DNA from: Candidatus Nealsonbacteria bacterium
GTDB lineage: Bacteria > Patescibacteriota > Minisyncoccia > Minisyncoccales > JAGMDC01
DNA length: 64,000 bases
Direction: 5' to 3'
Assembly: GCA_030612885.1 (NCBI GenBank)
Contig: JAUWMZ010000002.1
Span: 80,923 to 144,922 of the forward strand
Part shown: piece after piece, positions 2,811 through 62,513 of the stretch
Layout: each line of letters opens with the position of its first letter
Position numbering within the stretch: the first letter of the stretch is position 1
The notes under the pieces: generated by a model
Told to the model about the DNA's origin: nothing
Seen by the model: the letters and a program-made list of their open reading frames with translations, nothing else
Database searches by the model: none
Translations under genes and position numbers: made by a program

Positions 2811-3029
2811 AACTTTTTTAAAATGAAAAAATAAAGTAATAGATCTTCTTTAAAATTTTTGCTCGCCTAATTTTTAAAAAATTTTGGCGAGCGGGCAAAT
2901 AAGAAGTCGAATATTTGCCTTAACAGAATAGTTATTTCTGAAAGCATAAAATATGCTCTTTCTGAAATAATTAAATAAAATGGCAAAGAAAAAAAAGAAA
3001 AAGAAGAAGAAGTAAATTTCTTCTCCAAT

Positions 3030-3096
3030 CCCGCACCTTTTCTAGACAGAAGCCAAAGGCTTCAAAAATTCAAAGCAGTCCAGAAAAGGTGCGGGG
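3030..3096. repeat. GC-rich palindromic element, family 1 (termini CCCGCACCTTTT / AAAAGGTGCGGGG)
   Basis: 18-bp arms with one mismatch, an inner hairpin GAAGCC-AAA-GGCTTC, then a T run. Lies just upstream of secA. Confidence 0.8.
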
Positions 3097-3132
3097 TTGT
3101 TTTTTTATAAAAATCTGTTAAAATTAGGCGTA

Positions 3133-5640
3133 ATGAAGGTTTTGTCTAAACTCTTTGGCGATGCCAATGAAAAATATTTAAAGAAAATTCAGCCAATCGT
3201 TGACCAGATAAACAACCTCGAACAAGAGTTCGAGGGTTTTTCTGGTGAAAAGCTTCGTTTGGAGTCAGAAAAATTCAAAGAAGAATTAAAAAATGGCAAG
3301 ACGCTTGATGATATATTGCCAAAGGCATTCGCCTTAGCAAGAGAAGCAGCTAAAAAAACCTTAAATCAAAGGCATTTTGATGTTCAGCTAATCGGAGGCA
3401 TTGTTCTGCACCAAGGCAAAATCGCGGAAATGAAAACAGGTGAAGGAAAAACATTGGCATCTACTTTGGCGATTTATTTGAACGCTTTAACCGGCAAAGG
3501 AGTTCATGTAGTAACAGTTAATGATTATTTGGCCAAAAGAGACACGGTTTGGATGGGACAAATTTATCATTTGCTTGGTTTGTCAACAGGTTGTCTGGTG
3601 CATGATACGGCCTGTATTTATGATCCAGAATTTCAGCAGGAAAATCAAAACAATGATTCAGAACTCAAAACTAATGAAAGAGATAAAGAACGGGATACTT
3701 TGGGCGGATTTAAAGTTATTGAAAGTTATTTAAGACCTTGTTCCAGAAAAGAAGCATATGGCGCGGATATTACTTATGGCACTAACAATGAATTTGGTTT
3801 TGATTGTTTAAGAGATAATATGGTTTATGACTTAAAAGATAAAGCCCAGCGTGATTTTAATTTTGCCATTATTGATGAAGTTGACTCAATTTTAATTGAT
3901 GAAGCCAGAACCCCTTTAATTATTTCAGCTCCGGATGTAGAGGCAACAAAAATGTATTCAGAGTTTGCCAGTATTATTCCGAAACTAAACAAAGAAACCG
4001 ATTATGAAATTGATGAAAAAATGAAAGCTGTTACCCTAACTGAATCGGGCATTGAAAAAATAGAGAAAATTTTAGGTATGGAGAATATTTATCAGGAAAA
4101 AGGCATGAAATATTTACATCATTTAGAGCAATCTCTCCGCGCTCAAGCCCTTTTTAAGAAAGACAAGGATTATGTGGTAAAAGATGGTCAGGTTATTATT
4201 GTTGATGATTTTACCGGCCGTTTGCTTCCTGGCCGCCGTTATTCCGGAGGATTGCATCAAGCAATTGAGGCAAAGGAAGGAGTAGCAGTTCAGCCGGAAT
4301 CAAAAACCTTGGCTTCCATTACTTTTCAGAATTACTTTCGGCTTTATGATAAATTAGCAGGAATGACAGGAACAGCCGCCACTTCAGCAGAAGAATTTGA
4401 CAAAGTTTATAGTTTGGAAGTAGTGATTATACCAACAAACAAACCAATGGTTCGTGAGATATCGCCGGATAGAATTTATAAAACTGAAAACGGAAAGTTT
4501 AAGGCAGTGGTGGCAGAGATTAAAGCAAGGTATGAAACAGGCCAGCCAGTTTTAGTTGGTACCACTTCTATTGAGAAAAATGAATATCTTGGCAAATTAT
4601 TAGATATAGAAGGAGTTCCTCATCAGATTTTAAATGCCAAGCATCACCAGAAAGAAGGAGAAATTATTGCCCAGGCAGGCAGATACAATGCAGTGACCAT
4701 TGCTACAAATATGGCTGGCAGGGGAGTTGACATAATTTTAGGCGGTAATCCGTTTGACAAAAAAGAAGCAGAAAAAGTTATTAAAAGCAAAGGGCTTTGC
4801 GTTATCGGTACAGAGAGGCATGAAGCGAGGAGAATTGACAATCAGCTTAGGGGACGGTCTGGCAGGCAGGGTGACCCTGGCTCTTCACAGTTTTTTGTCT
4901 CTTTGGAAGATGATTTGCTAAGGATTTTCGGCGGAGAGAGAATCCAGAAGATGATGGAAATGCTGAAAATTCCGGAAGACCAGGCGATTGAAGCCAAAAT
5001 GGTTTCTGGAGTAATTGAATCAGCTCAGGAAAAGATTGAAGGAATGAATTTTGATTTAAGAAAACATTTATTGGATTATGATGATGTTTTAAACAAACAT
5101 CGGGATGTAATCTATAAAAAGCGGAGAGAAATCTTAGAGACAGGAAGCGAAGAGCGAAAAGCCAAAATTATAGAAATGGTTAAAAAACAGGGAAAGACAG
5201 AGCAAGATTATGAGAAAAAAGAAAAAGAAATAGGTGAAGAAAATATGAGAAAAGTGGAAAAGATTATCAGCTTGCGGAGTTTGGATTTCCTTTGGATGGA
5301 TCATTTGGAAAATATGGAGTATTTAAGGGATTCTGTCCGCTTGCGCGCTTATGGTCAGCAGGATCCCTTGGTAGAATACAAAAATGAAGGCCATAAAATG
5401 TTCCGCCAGCTTCTTAATATGATTGAGACCAATATTGTAGATACTCTTTTTAGGGTTAGTTTGACCAAACCAGAAGAAAAAGCTGTTCCTAGTCCTGGGT
5501 TGCAGTTCAGCCAGCCGTCTTTTTCTGCACCATCTCGTAACGAGGCCGGGCCTCGTAAAAACAAACCAGGTCGAAATGATACCTGCCCCTGCGGCAGCGG
5601 CAAAAAGTACAAAAAGTGCTGCTGGCCCAAATACGGATAA
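3133..5640 (+). CDS. secA: preprotein translocase ATPase SecA
   Basis: DEVDSILIDEARTPLIIS motor motif and C-terminal Zn finger CPCGSGKKYKKCC. ATG 3133 (MKVLSKLFGD) is preferred over the track's TTG 3097, which lies in a hairpin element. Confidence 0.95.
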   Translation: MKVLSKLFGDANEKYLKKIQPIVDQINNLEQEFEGFSGEKLRLESEKFKEELKNGKTLDDILPKAFALAREAAKKTLNQRHFDVQLIGGIVLHQGKIAEMKTGEGKTLASTLAIYLNALTGKGVHVVTVNDYLAKRDTVWMGQIYHLLGLSTGCLVHDTACIYDPEFQQENQNNDSELKTNERDKERDTLGGFKVIESYLRPCSRKEAYGADITYGTNNEFGFDCLRDNMVYDLKDKAQRDFNFAIIDEVDSILIDEARTPLIISAPDVEATKMYSEFASIIPKLNKETDYEIDEKMKAVTLTESGIEKIEKILGMENIYQEKGMKYLHHLEQSLRAQALFKKDKDYVVKDGQVIIVDDFTGRLLPGRRYSGGLHQAIEAKEGVAVQPESKTLASITFQNYFRLYDKLAGMTGTAATSAEEFDKVYSLEVVIIPTNKPMVREISPDRIYKTENGKFKAVVAEIKARYETGQPVLVGTTSIEKNEYLGKLLDIEGVPHQILNAKHHQKEGEIIAQAGRYNAVTIATNMAGRGVDIILGGNPFDKKEAEKVIKSKGLCVIGTERHEARRIDNQLRGRSGRQGDPGSSQFFVSLEDDLLRIFGGERIQKMMEMLKIPEDQAIEAKMVSGVIESAQEKIEGMNFDLRKHLLDYDDVLNKHRDVIYKKRREILETGSEERKAKIIEMVKKQGKTEQDYEKKEKEIGEENMRKVEKIISLRSLDFLWMDHLENMEYLRDSVRLRAYGQQDPLVEYKNEGHKMFRQLLNMIETNIVDTLFRVSLTKPEEKAVPSPGLQFSQPSFSAPSRNEAGPRKNKPGRNDTCPCGSGKKYKKCCWPKYG

Positions 5641-13753: not shown

Positions 13754-14874
13754 AAACTTTAAAAGATTTTAATTTTCAAGGAAAAAGAGTTTTATTAAGA
13801 ACAGATTTTAATGTTCCTTTGTCAGAACAAAGGGATATTTTAGATGATTTTCGGATAAAATCAGTTATTCCTACTATTGAATACTTAATAAAGAATAGAG
13901 CTAAGATTATTATAATCAGCCATCTTGGCCGGCCGGAAAAAAAAGAAGAAAAATTTAGTTTAAGGCCAGTTGCTTTGAAATTAGAAGAATTATTAAATAA
14001 GAAGATTAAGTTTTTTCCGGATTGTATTGGCAATAAGGTTGAAAAGGAAATAGAAAAAATGGAATCAGAAGACATTGTTGCTTTAGAGAATTTAAGATTT
14101 TACAAACAAGAAAAAGAAAATAATGAGAAATTTGCGAAGGACTTGGCAAAATTAACAGGAGATATTTACCCCGCACCTTTTGTCAGCAGGGTGCCTTCGG
14201 TACTTAAATTAAGAAAGTTAGCTGACAAAAGGTGCGGGGTTTATATTGATGATGCTTTTGCTGTTTGCCATCGTGAGCATGCTTCTATTGTTGGCATTCC
14301 AAAATATTTGCCAGCAGGAATTGGATTTTTAATAGAAAAAGAAATTAAAAATTTAAATAAAATTATAACAAGTCCCAAAAAGCCGTTTGTTTCTGTTCTT
14401 GGAGGGAAAAAAGCAGAAACAAAAGTAAAATTTATTGATAAAATTTCTAAAATTTCTGATTTCGTTTTAATCGGCGGTCTAATACCTAAAGAAATAAAAG
14501 AGCAAAACATAAAATTTAAAGAGCCGGAAAAAATTATTCTGCCTGTGGATTGGAAGGAAAATAATTATGATATTGGAGAAAAAACTACAAAAATTTTTAA
14601 AGAAAAAATTAAAACAGCAAAAACCATTTTCTGGAATGGTCCTTTGGGCAAGTTTGAAGAAGAAAAATTTGCTAAAGCAACAAAAGAAATTGCCAGGGCT
14701 ATTATTGGCAGTAACGCTTTTTCAGTAGTTGGAGGAGGGGAGACAATTGAGTTTTTAACCAGGATTGGCTTAATTAAAAAATTCAGCTTTATATCCACTG
14801 GCGGCGGCGCAATGCTTGACTATATAGTTGACGAAAAGTTGGTAGGTTTAGAAGCAATACGTTCGGGAATATGA
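13750..14874 (+). CDS. pgk: phosphoglycerate kinase (carries a 25-codon palindromic insertion)
   Basis: RTDFNVPL, IDDAFAVCHREHAS, ISTGGGAMLDY. ATGA overlap with the upstream stop. Confidence 0.9.
   Translation: MKTLKDFNFQGKRVLLRTDFNVPLSEQRDILDDFRIKSVIPTIEYLIKNRAKIIIISHLGRPEKKEEKFSLRPVALKLEELLNKKIKFFPDCIGNKVEKEIEKMESEDIVALENLRFYKQEKENNEKFAKDLAKLTGDIYPAPFVSRVPSVLKLRKLADKRCGVYIDDAFAVCHREHASIVGIPKYLPAGIGFLIEKEIKNLNKIITSPKKPFVSVLGGKKAETKVKFIDKISKISDFVLIGGLIPKEIKEQNIKFKEPEKIILPVDWKENNYDIGEKTTKIFKEKIKTAKTIFWNGPLGKFEEEKFAKATKEIARAIIGSNAFSVVGGGETIEFLTRIGLIKKFSFISTGGGAMLDYIVDEKLVGLEAIRSGI
14169..14239. repeat. GC-rich palindromic element, family 1, in-frame inside pgk
   Basis: CCCCGCACCTTTTGTCAGC-N33-GCTGACAAAAGGTGCGGGG with perfect 19-bp arms. 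TTTA sits on both flanks. Confidence 0.85.
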
Positions 14875-58004: not shown

Positions 58005-59930
58005 ATGATTAAAAAAGGAGATATTTATTATCCGACAAAGGAAATAAAAAATAAGGCCTGGGTGAAAGACAAAAAGATTTACAAAGAGGCAGAAAAAGAC
58101 CCGATTAAGTTTTGGGAGAATTTGGCTAAGGAGATTTTTTGGTTTAATAAATGGAAGAAAGGATTTGTTCATAAACCACCATATTTTCAATGGTTTACTG
58201 AGGGCAAAATAAATATTACGTCAAATATCTTTGAACATAATTCTTTAGGATGGGAGAAAATTAAAAATAAAACAGCCATTATTTGGGAGCCAGAGCTGAT
58301 TGATGAGAAGCCAAGAATTTTAACTTATAATGAGCTTTCTGGAGAGGTTAACAAATTTGCTAATGCCTTGAAAAGGCTAGGAGTAAGAAAAGGGGACAGG
58401 GTAGGAATTTATTTGCCAATGATTCCGGAAGTAATAATCTCAATACTTGCTTGCGCTCGCATTGGCGCTATTCATGCAGTTGTTTTTTCTGCTTTTTCTC
58501 CTAATGCTTTAAAAATTCGTCTTCAAGATACTGAAGCAAAAGTTTTGATTACTGCTGATGGATACTTTAGAAGAGGGAAAATAATTGACCTAAAGAAAAA
58601 CGCTGATCAGGGAATTCAAGAAACAAAAGTGAAAAAAGTTATTATAGTAAAGAGAGCTGAAAACAAGATTAAAATGGAAAAAGAAAGAGATTTCTGGTGG
58701 CAGGATTTGGTTGAGAAAGAATCTGTTCAATGCGAGCCAAGAGTAATGGACTCAGAAGACACTTTATTTATACTTTATACGAGCGGAAGCACTGGCAAGC
58801 CGAAGGGAACAGTTCATGCCTGCGGCGGCTATACTGTTCAGGCAAAATGGACAGGTAAATGGATATTTGATTTGCACGATAATGATATAATGTGGTGCAC
58901 TGCTGATGTTGGTTGGGTGACAGGCCACACATACGGTGTTTATTCGCCATTATTGAACGGTATACCTACTCTAATTTATGAAGGTTCACCTGATTGGCCT
59001 AATCTAGATCGTTGGGCGCAAATTATTGAAAAACACAAAGTAAATATTTTCTATACTGCCCCTACTGCTGTTAGAATGTTTAAAAAATACGGTACTGAAT
59101 TTATTGAAAAGTATAAATTTGATACTTTAAGAATTTTAGGTTCAGTAGGAGAGCCAATTGATGAAGCGGCTTGGAATTGGTATTTCAAAGAGGTAGGAAA
59201 AGAAAAATGTCCCATTCTTGATACTTGGTGGCAGACAGAAACAGGCGGAATTTTAATAACTTCTTTGCCTGGCGTTGGTCCTTTTAAACCCTGTTTTACC
59301 GGTCTTCCTTTGCCAGGTTTGAAATTTGATATCTTAGATGAAAAAGGTAAGTCCCTGCCTTCAAACAAAGAAGGAAATTTAGTTCTTTTGCCTCCTTTTA
59401 CACCAGGACTTTTACGAGGCATCTATAAAAATCCTAAAAAATATTTAGAGACATATTGGAACGAGTACGGGAAAAAAGTTTACTTTACCAGCGATGCTGC
59501 CTATAAAGATAAAAACGGTTTAATCAGGATTGTTGGCAGAGTAGATGATGTGATAAAAGTGGCTGGCCATCGTTTATCTACCGGTGAGTTAGAAGATGCT
59601 ATTTCCAGAATTCCAGACATTTCTGAATGTGCCGTAATCGGTATTCCTGATGAGATAAAAGGGGAAGCGCTTTTATCTTTTGTAGTTTTAAAAAAAGAAA
59701 AATCTTTAGAGCAAGTTCAGGAGGAGATAAAAAAGCAGATAAGAAAAGAAATTGGACCCATTGCTTCAATTAAAAATGTATATTTAGTTAAAGATTTGCC
59801 AAAAACTCGCTCCGGCAAAATTATGCGTCGGATTTTAAAACGATTATTTACTAAAGAAGAGTTAGGCGATATTTCTACTTTAGCTAATCCTGAAAGCGTT
59901 AATCAAATTAAAAAAGTTATTATTCAATAG
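58005..59930 (+). CDS. acs: acetyl-CoA synthetase
   Basis: YTSGSTGKPKG, WWQTETGG, SGKIMRR. Confidence 0.93.
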   Translation: MIKKGDIYYPTKEIKNKAWVKDKKIYKEAEKDPIKFWENLAKEIFWFNKWKKGFVHKPPYFQWFTEGKINITSNIFEHNSLGWEKIKNKTAIIWEPELIDEKPRILTYNELSGEVNKFANALKRLGVRKGDRVGIYLPMIPEVIISILACARIGAIHAVVFSAFSPNALKIRLQDTEAKVLITADGYFRRGKIIDLKKNADQGIQETKVKKVIIVKRAENKIKMEKERDFWWQDLVEKESVQCEPRVMDSEDTLFILYTSGSTGKPKGTVHACGGYTVQAKWTGKWIFDLHDNDIMWCTADVGWVTGHTYGVYSPLLNGIPTLIYEGSPDWPNLDRWAQIIEKHKVNIFYTAPTAVRMFKKYGTEFIEKYKFDTLRILGSVGEPIDEAAWNWYFKEVGKEKCPILDTWWQTETGGILITSLPGVGPFKPCFTGLPLPGLKFDILDEKGKSLPSNKEGNLVLLPPFTPGLLRGIYKNPKKYLETYWNEYGKKVYFTSDAAYKDKNGLIRIVGRVDDVIKVAGHRLSTGELEDAISRIPDISECAVIGIPDEIKGEALLSFVVLKKEKSLEQVQEEIKKQIRKEIGPIASIKNVYLVKDLPKTRSGKIMRRILKRLFTKEELGDISTLANPESVNQIKKVIIQ

Positions 59931-59968
59931 AAATATCTATTATGAAAAATTTTGTAATCGCTAACTGG

Positions 59969-60000
59969 CCCCGTACAAATTCCTGCGGAATTTTACGGGG
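59969..60000. repeat. GC-rich hairpin CCCCGTACAAATTCC-TGC-GGAATTTTACGGGG in a duplicated tpiA 5' end
   Basis: 14-bp stem with a one-nt bulge. Flanked by two copies of TAATCGCTAACTGG (59956-59969 region and 60035-60048). Confidence 0.85.
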
Positions 60001-60015
60001 TAAAAAAATGAATCT

Positions 60016-60765
60016 ATGAAAAAGACATTAATAATCGCTAACTGGAAGATGAATCCTTCCAATACAACGCAAGCTAAGGTTCTTTTTGATGAAGTTGCAA
60101 AAGTATTAAAAGATGTTAAAAAAGCAAAGGTGGTTATATGCCCGCCATTTCCTTATCTATCAATTATCAATAATCAACTATCATTGATAAAACTCGGCGC
60201 GCAGGATTGTTTTTGGGAAGAAAGCGGCTCATTTACTGGTGAGATTTCTCTATCAATGTTAAAAGATCTTGGATGTAAATATGTTATTATCGGCCATTCT
60301 GAACGTAGGCAGTTTTTAAATGAAACAGATAGAATGGTAAACAAAAAAATAAAAGCAGCTTTAATTAAAAATATTAGGCCTATTTTTTGCTTCGGAGAAA
60401 GCAAAAAAGATAAAGACCAAGGAAAGACTCAGAATGTTCTAAAAAAACAATTAGAAAATGGTTTAAGAAAAATAATCAAAAGCGATGTTAAAAAAATTAT
60501 TTTTGCCTATGAACCATTATGGGCTATTGGAAGCGGTAAGCCATGTTCTCCAGAGGAAGCCAATGTTATAAGGTTGTTTATAAAAAAAATTATTACACAA
60601 AAATATTCCCGTCCAATTGCTAACGAAATTAAGATACTTTACGGTGGAAGCGTAAACAGTTCAAATGTTAAAAGTTTCATTCAGCAAGGCAGTTTTCAGG
60701 GGGTCTTAGTTGGTGGTGTCTCATTAAAACCTAAAGAATTTATTAAATTAGTGAAAAATATTTGA
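60016..60765 (+). CDS. tpiA: triosephosphate isomerase
   Basis: IANWKMN, IIGHSERR, AYEPLWAIG, YGGSV. Confidence 0.93.
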   Translation: MKKTLIIANWKMNPSNTTQAKVLFDEVAKVLKDVKKAKVVICPPFPYLSIINNQLSLIKLGAQDCFWEESGSFTGEISLSMLKDLGCKYVIIGHSERRQFLNETDRMVNKKIKAALIKNIRPIFCFGESKKDKDQGKTQNVLKKQLENGLRKIIKSDVKKIIFAYEPLWAIGSGKPCSPEEANVIRLFIKKIITQKYSRPIANEIKILYGGSVNSSNVKSFIQQGSFQGVLVGGVSLKPKEFIKLVKNI

Positions 60766-61343: not shown

Positions 61344-62513
61344 ATGGAAAAGGAACAAGTTCCTCGCAAGCGAGAGAAAAAGCAATCCGCCAGCTGGCGG
61401 AGAAAAACCAGAGTAATGGTGGCGATGTCTGGAGGAGTTGATTCTTCACTAGCAGCTGCTTTACTAAAAAAACAAGGCCTTGAAGTTCAAGGTGTTTTTT
61501 TAAAGCTTTTTGATTCAGATAGTTTCAAAAAGTCAGAGAAAAGAGCGAAAAAAGTAGCAGGAGCCTTAGGAATTCCTTTTTTTGTTTTGGATTTAAGAAA
61601 CGAGTTCAAAAAGAAAATAATTGATTATTTTATTAAAGAACTTCAGCAAGGAAAAACGCCAAATCCTTGTGTTTTGTGCAATAAAGAGATTAAGTTCGGG
61701 ATTTTATTAAAAAAGCTTAGAGAACTAAAAATTGATTTTGATTTCATTGCTACAGGACACTATGCTCGCCTGCGGCAAGAAATTCAAAACTGTAGATTGT
61801 TTAAGGCAAAAAATAAAGAAAAAGACCAATCATATTTTTTGTGGCAGCTTAATCAGAAACAGTTAAAACATATTTTATTTCCTATTGGAAATTATAAAAA
61901 AGAAGAAGTTAGAAATTTAGCTGAAAAATTTAAATTGCCTGCTTTTTCTTCTGAATCCCAGGAAATTTGTTTTATTGGGAAAAATATAGATGATTTTCTA
62001 AGAAAAAATTTTAAAATTAAAAAAGGCGATATTGTGAATACTGAAGGAAAAATTATTGGAAAACATCAGGGTTTATGGTTTTATACTATTGGCCAGAGAA
62101 AAACGATAGGGCTTTCCGGCGGTCCCTATTATGTTTTAGATAAAGACATCAGGAAAAATGTTTTGATTGTGACTAAAAACGAGAACGATCTGTACGGCAA
62201 AGAATTGATTGTGAAAAAGGTTAATTGGATTTCTGGAAAGGAACCAAAATTACCAATAAAAGTTAAAGCGAAAATTCGTTATCGCCACAAATCCGCTGCA
62301 GCCATTATTACACCTACACACCAGTTCGTAGGTGTAAAAAAGAATGAATTGAAAGTGGTTTTTGATAAGCCGCAGCGGGCAATTACTCCGGGCCAATCAG
62401 TGGTATTCTACTTGCCCGCCGAAGCTTTTTTATCCGCCGTAGCTTCAGCGAAGGCGGGAGCGAAGGAGGGTAAAGGTCAGGAACTTTTAGGTGGCGGTAT
62501 CATAGGAAGTTAA
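61344..62513 (+). CDS. mnmA: tRNA 2-thiouridine(34) synthase MnmA
   Basis: VAMSGGVDSS, PNPCVLCN, GGGIIGS end. The first 24 codons are hairpin-rich and ATG 61416 is an alternative start. Confidence 0.88.
   Translation: MEKEQVPRKREKKQSASWRRKTRVMVAMSGGVDSSLAAALLKKQGLEVQGVFLKLFDSDSFKKSEKRAKKVAGALGIPFFVLDLRNEFKKKIIDYFIKELQQGKTPNPCVLCNKEIKFGILLKKLRELKIDFDFIATGHYARLRQEIQNCRLFKAKNKEKDQSYFLWQLNQKQLKHILFPIGNYKKEEVRNLAEKFKLPAFSSESQEICFIGKNIDDFLRKNFKIKKGDIVNTEGKIIGKHQGLWFYTIGQRKTIGLSGGPYYVLDKDIRKNVLIVTKNENDLYGKELIVKKVNWISGKEPKLPIKVKAKIRYRHKSAAAIITPTHQFVGVKKNELKVVFDKPQRAITPGQSVVFYLPAEAFLSAVASAKAGAKEGKGQELLGGGIIGS
61348..61376. repeat. 29-nt segment AAAAGGAACAAGTTCCTCGCAAGCGAGAG, copy 2 (mnmA 5' end)
   Basis: Identical to 2336-2364 but read in a different codon phase. 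Followed by the palindrome CCGCCAGCTGGCGG at 61385-61398. Confidence 0.9.

Follow-up and report, generated by a model that had tools for sequence, protein, structure and literature searches.

Why should the gene of a glycolytic enzyme begin twice, with a hairpin lodged in the first of its two beginnings? The question is raised by tpiA, which encodes triose-phosphate isomerase (TIM), in a stretch of 64,000 nt from Candidatus Nealsonbacteria contig JAUWMZ010000002.1 (hereafter the window). An original prediction, made from the letters alone, saw in the acs-tpiA spacer the scar of an element that hit the N-terminal IANWKMN motif, with function rescued by a tandem duplication of the 5' end of the gene. 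We found the insertion and the dead copy much as predicted, but the second 5' end looks, from its sequence, like a diverged allele that was imported rather than copied in tandem. The features are the following, in window positions (loci used for comparison are designated L; those with the insert are called filled and those without it empty).

58005 to 59930, forward strand: acs, AMP-forming acetyl-CoA synthetase, an open reading frame (ORF) of 641 aa whose orthologues carry Pfam ACAS_N, AMP-binding and AMP-binding_C
59942 to 60019, forward strand: relic mini-ORF of 25 codons, present in the ORF list, whose TGA stop (60017-60019) overlaps the tpiA ATG (ATGA)
59942 to 59968, forward strand: relic head ATGAAAAATTTTGTAATCGCTAACTGG, codons 1-9 (MKNFVIANW) of the putative ancestral tpiA start, with the spacing from the acs stop that the real tpiA ATG has in L003 and L010, two empty-site loci
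59969 to 60004, forward strand: 36-nt palindromic insert CCCCGTACAAATTCCTGCGGAATTTTACGGGGTAAA, a stem-loop (59969-60000) followed by TAAA, missing at empty sites
60005 to 60015, forward strand: relic tail AAAATGAATCT, putative ancestral codons 10-12 (KMN) plus 2 nt, doubling as the A-rich leader of the working start
60016 to 60072, forward strand: replacement 5' end MKKTLIIANWKMNPSNTTQ, codons 1-19 of the working tpiA, here called type B and common to the window, L004 and L005 only
60016 to 60765, forward strand: functional tpiA, triose-phosphate isomerase of 249 aa, assigned by alignment to TIM structures; its homologues carry PF00121

The two tpiA 5' copies do lie in tandem, the relic at 59942-59968 and 60005-60015 and the working start at 60016, with the 36-nt hairpin in the upstream copy only, which runs into its stop just as the working copy begins. 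The acs stop, TAG at 59928-59930, is separated from the relic ATG by a spacer of 11 nt, and deletion of the 36 nt brings back the reading AAC TGG AAA ATG AAT. Freed of the insert, the relic aligns with tpiA 60016-60056 with 33 of 38 identities and one gap of 3 nt, the length of a codon. This similarity exceeds chance, a point that the prediction had left to a proper alignment: the spacer and the tpiA 5' end reach a local score of 30, which was attained neither in 5000 dinucleotide-preserving shuffles (maximum 29) nor by 1588 other 85-mers of the window (maximum 26), and the 12-mer ATCGCTAACTGG occurs at these two copies only in the 64 kb. An assembly artefact is ruled out as well, since L001 and L002, assembled independently from the window organism, show the structure unchanged. 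The composite is also present, with lineage-specific substitutions, in two other metagenomes (L004 and L005), which makes four independent assemblies in all.

The order of events can be read from the relatives. Our comparison set consists of the closest TpiA proteins in public data, from metagenomes of Parcubacteria/Patescibacteria, together with their contigs. The empty-site loci are, by TpiA identity to the window, L003 (88%), L010 (82%), L007-L009 (80%) and L006 (69%), and their tpiA starts read ATGAAAA(C/A)(T/A)TTTGT(A/G)AT(C/T)GC(T/C)AA(C/T)TGGAA(A/G)ATGAA(T/C)CC. In L003, L006, L007 and L010, tpiA starts exactly at the relic position (the original prediction had proposed a comparison of the acs-tpiA spacer in related genomes); in the acs-linked L003 and L010, the distance from the upstream stop to the start equals that of the window relic. 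Once the hairpin is excised, the relic differs from the empty-site starts at 2-6 of 37 nt (2 in L010, 3 in L006). Since these four insert-free relatives start tpiA at the relic position, the upstream copy is, by this comparison, the ancestral orthologous tpiA start, broken by the inserted hairpin and now dead, and the related loci are empty sites. The filled loci L004 (TpiA 84% identical) and L005 (69%) repeat the order of the window, namely relic head, hairpin, AAAATGAATCT and new ATG, and the relic-tail sequence AAAATGAATC, which is the empty-site sequence after TGG, is identical across all three filled lineages. In L004, codon 9 of the relic has changed from TGG to TAG, and the hairpin has one base pair fewer. 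The mini-ORF is thus not a conserved peptide, which had been named as the finding that would speak against a relic. The new 5' copy, by contrast, is open in all three filled lineages, and its codon changes are mostly synonymous or conservative, so it is evidently translated.

The same comparison contradicts the idea of a snapshot of a recent event. The composite allele is old, being shared by lineages with TpiA merely 69-84% identical, where it coexists and segregates with empty alleles, and it moves by homologous recombination. In 100-nt bins, the window and its relatives range from 65% to 97% identical, a swing which indicates that these lineages recombine freely, as a mosaic population. Together the loci offer a natural before-and-after series, with empty sites, filled sites and a decaying relic.

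What did the insertion cost, and which start is in use? The insert splits IANW|KMN between Trp9 and Lys10, so the element did strike the predicted motif, which aligns with the N-terminal NWKM of solved TIMs. We take the Asn and Lys of NWKM to be catalytic residues, following established TIM enzymology, and on that basis 12 extra residues between them should abolish activity and leave a null or crippled allele. The working gene uses the second 5' copy: TpiA aligns from residue 2 (residues 2-246) to solved TIM structures, NWKM motif included (E = 2.7e-64 to 1b9b), and the gene must begin at 60016 because the catalytic Asn/Lys motif would otherwise be left out. Public gene calls for the filled alleles (P0001, window-type, and P0003, from L004) instead begin TpiA at Met12, giving a protein of 238 aa that omits this motif. 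The exact 249-aa TpiA is absent from the public record, and a look-up of the exact protein had no match because the public calls use the 238-aa form. In practice, therefore, public TpiA annotations of filled alleles miss the catalytic Asn and Lys. A start at 60016 is in no way unusual for this genome. Motifs resembling a Shine-Dalgarno sequence (GGAG, GAGG or AGGA in the 20 nt before the ATG) precede 6 of the 54 window genes (forward-strand ORFs of at least 120 aa), and gene starts in the window typically follow A/T-rich sequence; with such motifs so rare, an ATG after an A-rich unstructured stretch (TAAAAAAATGAATCT) is a normal start here.

Where did the second 5' end come from? The proposed tandem duplication fits poorly. 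Relative to the relic, the working copy has an extra codon, several substitutions and 3-4 amino-acid changes, while the relic is near-identical to the empty-site starts. The most telling comparison is between the filled L005 and the empty L006, which agree at 112 of 112 nt upstream and at more than 99% of positions in the gene body. What sets them apart is a 77-nt block, some 10 changes within the 18 nt past the duplicated interval, into which the new-type sequence thus continues, and 6 changes scattered over the next ~215 nt; beyond that stretch there are no differences. This pattern is, as far as sequence can tell, the footprint of a recombination tract bearing a different allele, and not of duplication in situ.

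We therefore propose the following scenario, to which we give slightly better than even chances. The ancestral tpiA would have begun 11 nt after acs with MK(N/T)FVIANWKMNP, and a GC-rich 36-nt element of REP-like or RPE-like character (repetitive extragenic palindromic and Rickettsia palindromic elements, respectively) would have inserted between Trp9 and Lys10 without target-site duplication. Hairpin-free DNA would then have supplied a new 5' end, made of A-rich leader bases, the ATG and codons 1 to ~19 of the diverged type B allele, joined 10-11 nt downstream of the hairpin, the old start being left as a 25-codon dead-end ORF. As to the way in which this second 5' end arose, we infer that the likely route was recombination with DNA of a related cell, with one crossover by homology within tpiA and the other joint, illegitimate or by microhomology, at AAAATGAATC. 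Such a route would be termed homology-facilitated illegitimate recombination, or unequal crossover between alleles. The former is a documented mechanism, defined in PMC3240628, and the term is used also in the text of PMC5361080. The composite allele has since passed between lineages by ordinary homologous recombination. In L007 (2975-3000), the acs stop region and spacer read TAAAAAATGAATCTACTATG, which contains the relic-tail sequence AAAATGAATC and nearly matches the post-hairpin leader of the window, TAAAAAAATGAATCTATG (60001-60018); this likeness may be a trace of the recombination joint, or it may be fortuitous.

A second case strengthens the link between insertion and rescue. The original prediction had suggested a search for other partial 5' duplications next to hairpin elements, and one was found, at gap, the gene of glyceraldehyde-3-phosphate dehydrogenase (GAPDH), with no others in the window or the fetched loci. 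The hairpin match L040, from the same Patescibacteria metagenome-assembled genome as L056, has a tpiA-like architecture: ATGACAAAAATCGCAATTAACGGCTTTGGCCGCA, the 36-nt element and TTGGCCGGCTCGCAAAAAT are followed by ATGATTAAAATAGCT..., the start of a full-length gap. The relic reads MTKIAINGFGR, element, IGRLA, and ends in an ATGA overlap. Excision of the 36 nt gives back MTKIAINGFGRIGRLA, so the insert breaks the GxGxxG NAD-binding loop in two. From another sample, L062 (GAPDH 95% identical) repeats this structure with a relic head of its own. L065, which is distantly syntenic and has a homologous upstream gene, lacks the insert, and 31 of 33 nt of its start agree with the L040 relic head. The first 20 nt of the new gap start equal those of the native start of L063, a locus with other genomic surroundings. 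Between the gap relic and the new copy, third codon positions are nearly all different. A DNA-level scan of ~2,470 candidate starts in the window and more than 60 loci returned no hairpin-free 5' duplication, and a protein-level scan of the same material returned gap as the sole further 5' relic; mirror-image relics at 3' ends were not found above control level in the window and fetched loci. The lack of hairpin-free relics among so many starts argues that insertion and rescue are causally linked. That two glycolytic genes in different lineages met the same fate suggests a general repair route, not described before, in small, recombining, Shine-Dalgarno-poor genomes: a gene hit by a palindromic selfish element at an intolerant site is not purged of it, but is given a new front end, with the damaged stub left in place.

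Several points weigh against rescue by imported DNA. No donor lineage with a relic-free type B start was found, a search with a 49-aa query being empty since no candidate shared three 5-residue words, and the argument from a 10-nt microhomology rests on the spacer of a single relative (L007). The loss of TpiA activity is deduced from the position of the insert. At gap, sliding identity in L040 is too noisy and the relatives too distant for a recombination breakpoint to be placed, and both cases were found via the hairpin, which biases ascertainment. Moreover, the two copies in the window share an exact stretch of 14 nt, TAATCGCTAACTGG, and have similar bases (ATCTAT) just before both ATGs, as a tandem duplication in situ would give. 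Such a duplication is still a serious rival, if on balance a doubtful one. A slipped-strand or unequal sister-chromosome event would have copied the end of the spacer and codons 1-13 after the insertion, the hairpin would then have been lost or skipped in one copy, and the copies would later have diverged. It is the simplest mutational mechanism, and it accounts for the head-to-tail layout and for a joint at short similarity (ATC / AATCT, besides the ATCTAT before both ATGs). A copy spanning the hairpin would, however, carry the hairpin too, and the divergence is on the wrong side: the constrained working copy has diverged, while the unconstrained relic stands 2-3 of 37 nt from empty-site starts. 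The copies, 33 of 38 identical in the window, are also far less alike in L004 and L005, type B sequence passes the duplicated interval in the near-isogenic L005/L006 pair, and third codon positions at gap separate the two copies almost throughout. A long target-site duplication made by the element itself can be rejected. The hairpin interrupts the first copy instead of separating the two, coding sequence runs on into the relic tail at tpiA as well as at gap, and in L005/L006 the copies are dissimilar.

Could the duplication have come first, as a neutral event, with the element later striking the dead copy harmlessly? No lethal intermediate would then be needed, and the element family does insert in many places. 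We hold this to be quite improbable, given the empty scan for hairpin-free duplications, the small size of the targets (relics of 38-50 nt, so that two independent strikes by a family with one copy per locus are very unlikely) and the position of both inserts within a catalytic or cofactor motif. An exapted leader, in which the relic mini-ORF and hairpin are kept in order to control tpiA translation by ATGA re-initiation or as a structured leader after acs, seems a shade less probable again. In its favour, the stop of the relic ORF overlaps the new ATG at tpiA and again at gap, the acs-tpiA interval has no called promoter or terminator, and filled lineages differ from one another at 4-7 positions of the 74-nt relic region, compared with 8 of 57 for the new coding sequence. 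Yet the L004 mini-ORF is broken at codon 9, 47 nt before the ATG, with tpiA intact, G5-to-A in L004 and L005 weakens the stem with no compensating change, the region matches no Rfam family, and the ATGA frame coincidence would arise in two cases about 1 time in 9 by chance. Termination and re-initiation at ATGA may help tpiA translation, but the L004 interruption makes this coupling at most a dispensable helper.

Translational bypass is the least credible of the alternatives, and we give it next to no weight. Ribosomes would start at the relic ATG, take off at AAC-TGG and resume 77 nt further downstream, at an identical AAC-TGG; GCT AAC TGG does stand at both 59960-59968 and 60037-60045, the hairpin is immediately 3' of the putative take-off site, and the L004 stop codon comes directly after AAC. 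The new copy, however, has its own ATG, and its codons 1-8, although non-coding under bypass, are open with mostly synonymous or conservative changes in three lineages. Take-off and landing sites also differ in L004/L005 (GCC AAC TAG against GCA AAT TGG), and we know of no nascent-peptide signal here. Bypass predicts a TpiA N-terminus reading MKNFVIANWKMN..., an independent new start MKKTLII.... One might finally speculate that hairpin and replacement 5' end belong to one process, a mobile element or cassette (element, leader and gene start) with coupled re-creation of the 5' end, either because breaks induced by the element are repaired from hairpin-free templates or because the block homes as a whole. 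Such coupling would explain why tpiA and gap have nearly the same geometry (36-nt insert 9-11 codons in, relic tail of 10-19 nt, ATGA overlap), and if true the composite allele could spread through recombining Patescibacteria populations; we regard it as unlikely. Insertion followed by rescue through recombination with hairpin-free DNA is the account that we favour.

The element itself belongs to a family that this locus has brought to light. At tpiA the hairpin has a 14-bp stem with one bulged C and a 3-nt loop, and the region has a minimum free energy of -27.2 kcal/mol (z = -3.0). It is no intrinsic terminator, having no T-run (the hairpin is followed by TAAAAAAA) and being called on neither strand by a terminator scan, and no known structured RNA, the Rfam covariance models giving no match with E <= 1 in 59700-60300. 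A search with the hairpin-core pattern returned 42 metagenome contigs and 9 species-representative genomes, which collapse to 31 distinct family sites once duplicates are removed. The 9 matches were the only ones among GTDB species genomes, and about half of them are chance matches in unrelated phyla; viral contigs held no copy. The family consensus, CCCCGAACAAATTCCTTCGGAATTATACGGGG, is usually followed by CAGG, CAAG or TAAA (a 32-nt core plus 4 nt), and its palindrome is conserved over the 31 sites. Copies are widespread in Patescibacteria of groundwater and sediment (hairpin sites in loci L011-L062), with a single one in the window. The core can be read without a stop in 5 of the 6 frames, of which three forward and two reverse frames are in use, and many copies form 12-residue in-frame inserts inside long ORFs (spanning ORFs of 750-2900 nt). 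Their hosts include ProRS, a P-type ATPase, PheT, TrmD, Pgk, an RtcA-like protein and the C-terminal part of another TpiA. The family is thus translation-compatible and sits inside many Patescibacteria proteins; most copies are intragenic, that of tpiA itself lying in a dead ORF and not in a protein translated in frame. Comparison of filled and empty sites at tpiA (TGG|AAAATG) and gap (CGCA|TTGG) reveals a clean addition of 36 nt without target-site duplication. Elements are often nested in larger CCCCGAAGC...GCTACGGGG palindromes, and the larger composite copies are flanked by A-rich direct repeats of 12-18 nt, such as CAAAATTCAAAA, which might be target duplications of the composite form. 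In L006, some 20-90 nt past the tpiA stop (alignment columns 1110-1177), tandem copies of AGAACCTGCCTTTCAGGCAGAACCTTGATTCCTTCGGAATTAAG constitute another small palindromic repeat, with the loop motif TTCCTTCGGAA in common with the 36-nt family.

The closest known counterparts in behaviour are the RPEs, likewise dispersed palindromes inside coding genes that are read through in frame, and reviewed as in-frame intragenic palindromes (PMC10969869). The 36-nt family shares with them the hairpin palindrome, the many dispersed copies and the in-frame copies within ORFs. RPEs are, however, ~100-150 bp long and found in Rickettsia, against 36 nt in Patescibacteria, and the likeness is one of behaviour. 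In addition, the tpiA and gap copies struck catalytic or cofactor motifs, and a new gene start circumvents them, an outcome not described for RPEs. REP elements and their mosaic combinations (BIME), linked to RAYT transposases of IS200/IS605-like type, are GC-rich imperfect palindromes of ~35 nt in many copies, often nested or clustered and inserted without target-site duplication; the 36-nt family resembles them in all this, size and lack of duplication included. REPs are extragenic by definition and have a conserved GTAG-type head; the 36-nt copies, in contrast, are mostly intragenic and begin with CCCCG. Nor do tpiA and gap have the flanking target-site duplication of miniature inverted-repeat transposable elements.

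The outcome for the gene has its own parallels. Phage 21 and e14 in icd, and integrators into tRNA genes, neutralise their insertion by supplying a duplicate gene end, and a pseudo-fragment is left beside the restored gene. These use an integrase, and carry the duplicate within attP at the 3' end, whereas here the 5' end is replaced, outside a 36-nt element without cargo or integrase. Effector/immunity arrays of the type VI secretion system, and the orphan tips of Rhs and contact-dependent inhibition systems, arise by additive recombination of incoming diverged alleles through one homologous and one illegitimate joint, with the displaced end kept as a relic beside the new one; in those systems diversifying selection drives the displacement of 3' toxin ends, while here it is a 5' catalytic end that was displaced, once a mobile hairpin had damaged it. 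T4 gene 60 and the mitochondrial 'byp' elements have, as here, a short hairpin insert in coding sequence with matching codons on both sides, but that insert is skipped by the ribosome. At tpiA, the window does show a matched AAC TGG and a hairpin, yet bypass is unnecessary, since what lies downstream brings an ATG of its own and a second 5' end with constrained codons (1-10).

Other GC-rich inserts were met in and around these loci. The original prediction had likened the 5' end of the tpiA hairpin to a family-1 terminus, and CCCCGTAC does resemble the CCCCGCAC ends of the window palindromes at 3026-3099 and 14162-14246; the interiors are unrelated. With only the CCCCG(C/T)AC...CGGGG ends alike, the hairpin belongs not to family 1 but to the separate, widespread 36-nt family. 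The family-1 palindrome at 14162-14246 (CCCCGCACCTTTT...AAAAGGTGCGGGG) adds 25 in-frame residues to phosphoglycerate kinase, with GDI before them and YIDDAF after, and appears as a clean BLASTP gap against the Pgk of L065; the second copy (3026-3099) is intergenic and followed by a T-run. In L060 (~3290-3360, minus strand view), a 36-nt element stands exactly at the junction of T-stem and T-loop in a 3' fragment resembling a tRNA (...GTGAG|36 nt|TTCGAATCTCACCCCCACCGCCA) that adjoins an intact tRNA-Ser(tga); ARAGORN detected no tRNA in this fragment after excision of the 36 nt. In L001 (485-2410), acs is split into two called ORFs, of 377 and 221 aa, against the single 641-aa ORF of the window, through an assembly difference or a frameshift. 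A Parcubacteria TpiA (P0008, 67% identical) has, compared with its relatives, two other GC-rich in-frame inserts, ...NPCLPSPEAKATGGQVKS... and ...DPPAGGGS.... Finally, a GC-rich stretch at the 3' end of mnmA (~62400-62470) encodes an in-frame insert of ~20 residues (LPAEAFLSAVASAKAGAKEG) just before the conserved ELLGGGII C-terminus; it is missing from the 75%-identical MnmA of L004 and appears, from its sequence, to be a third type of element.

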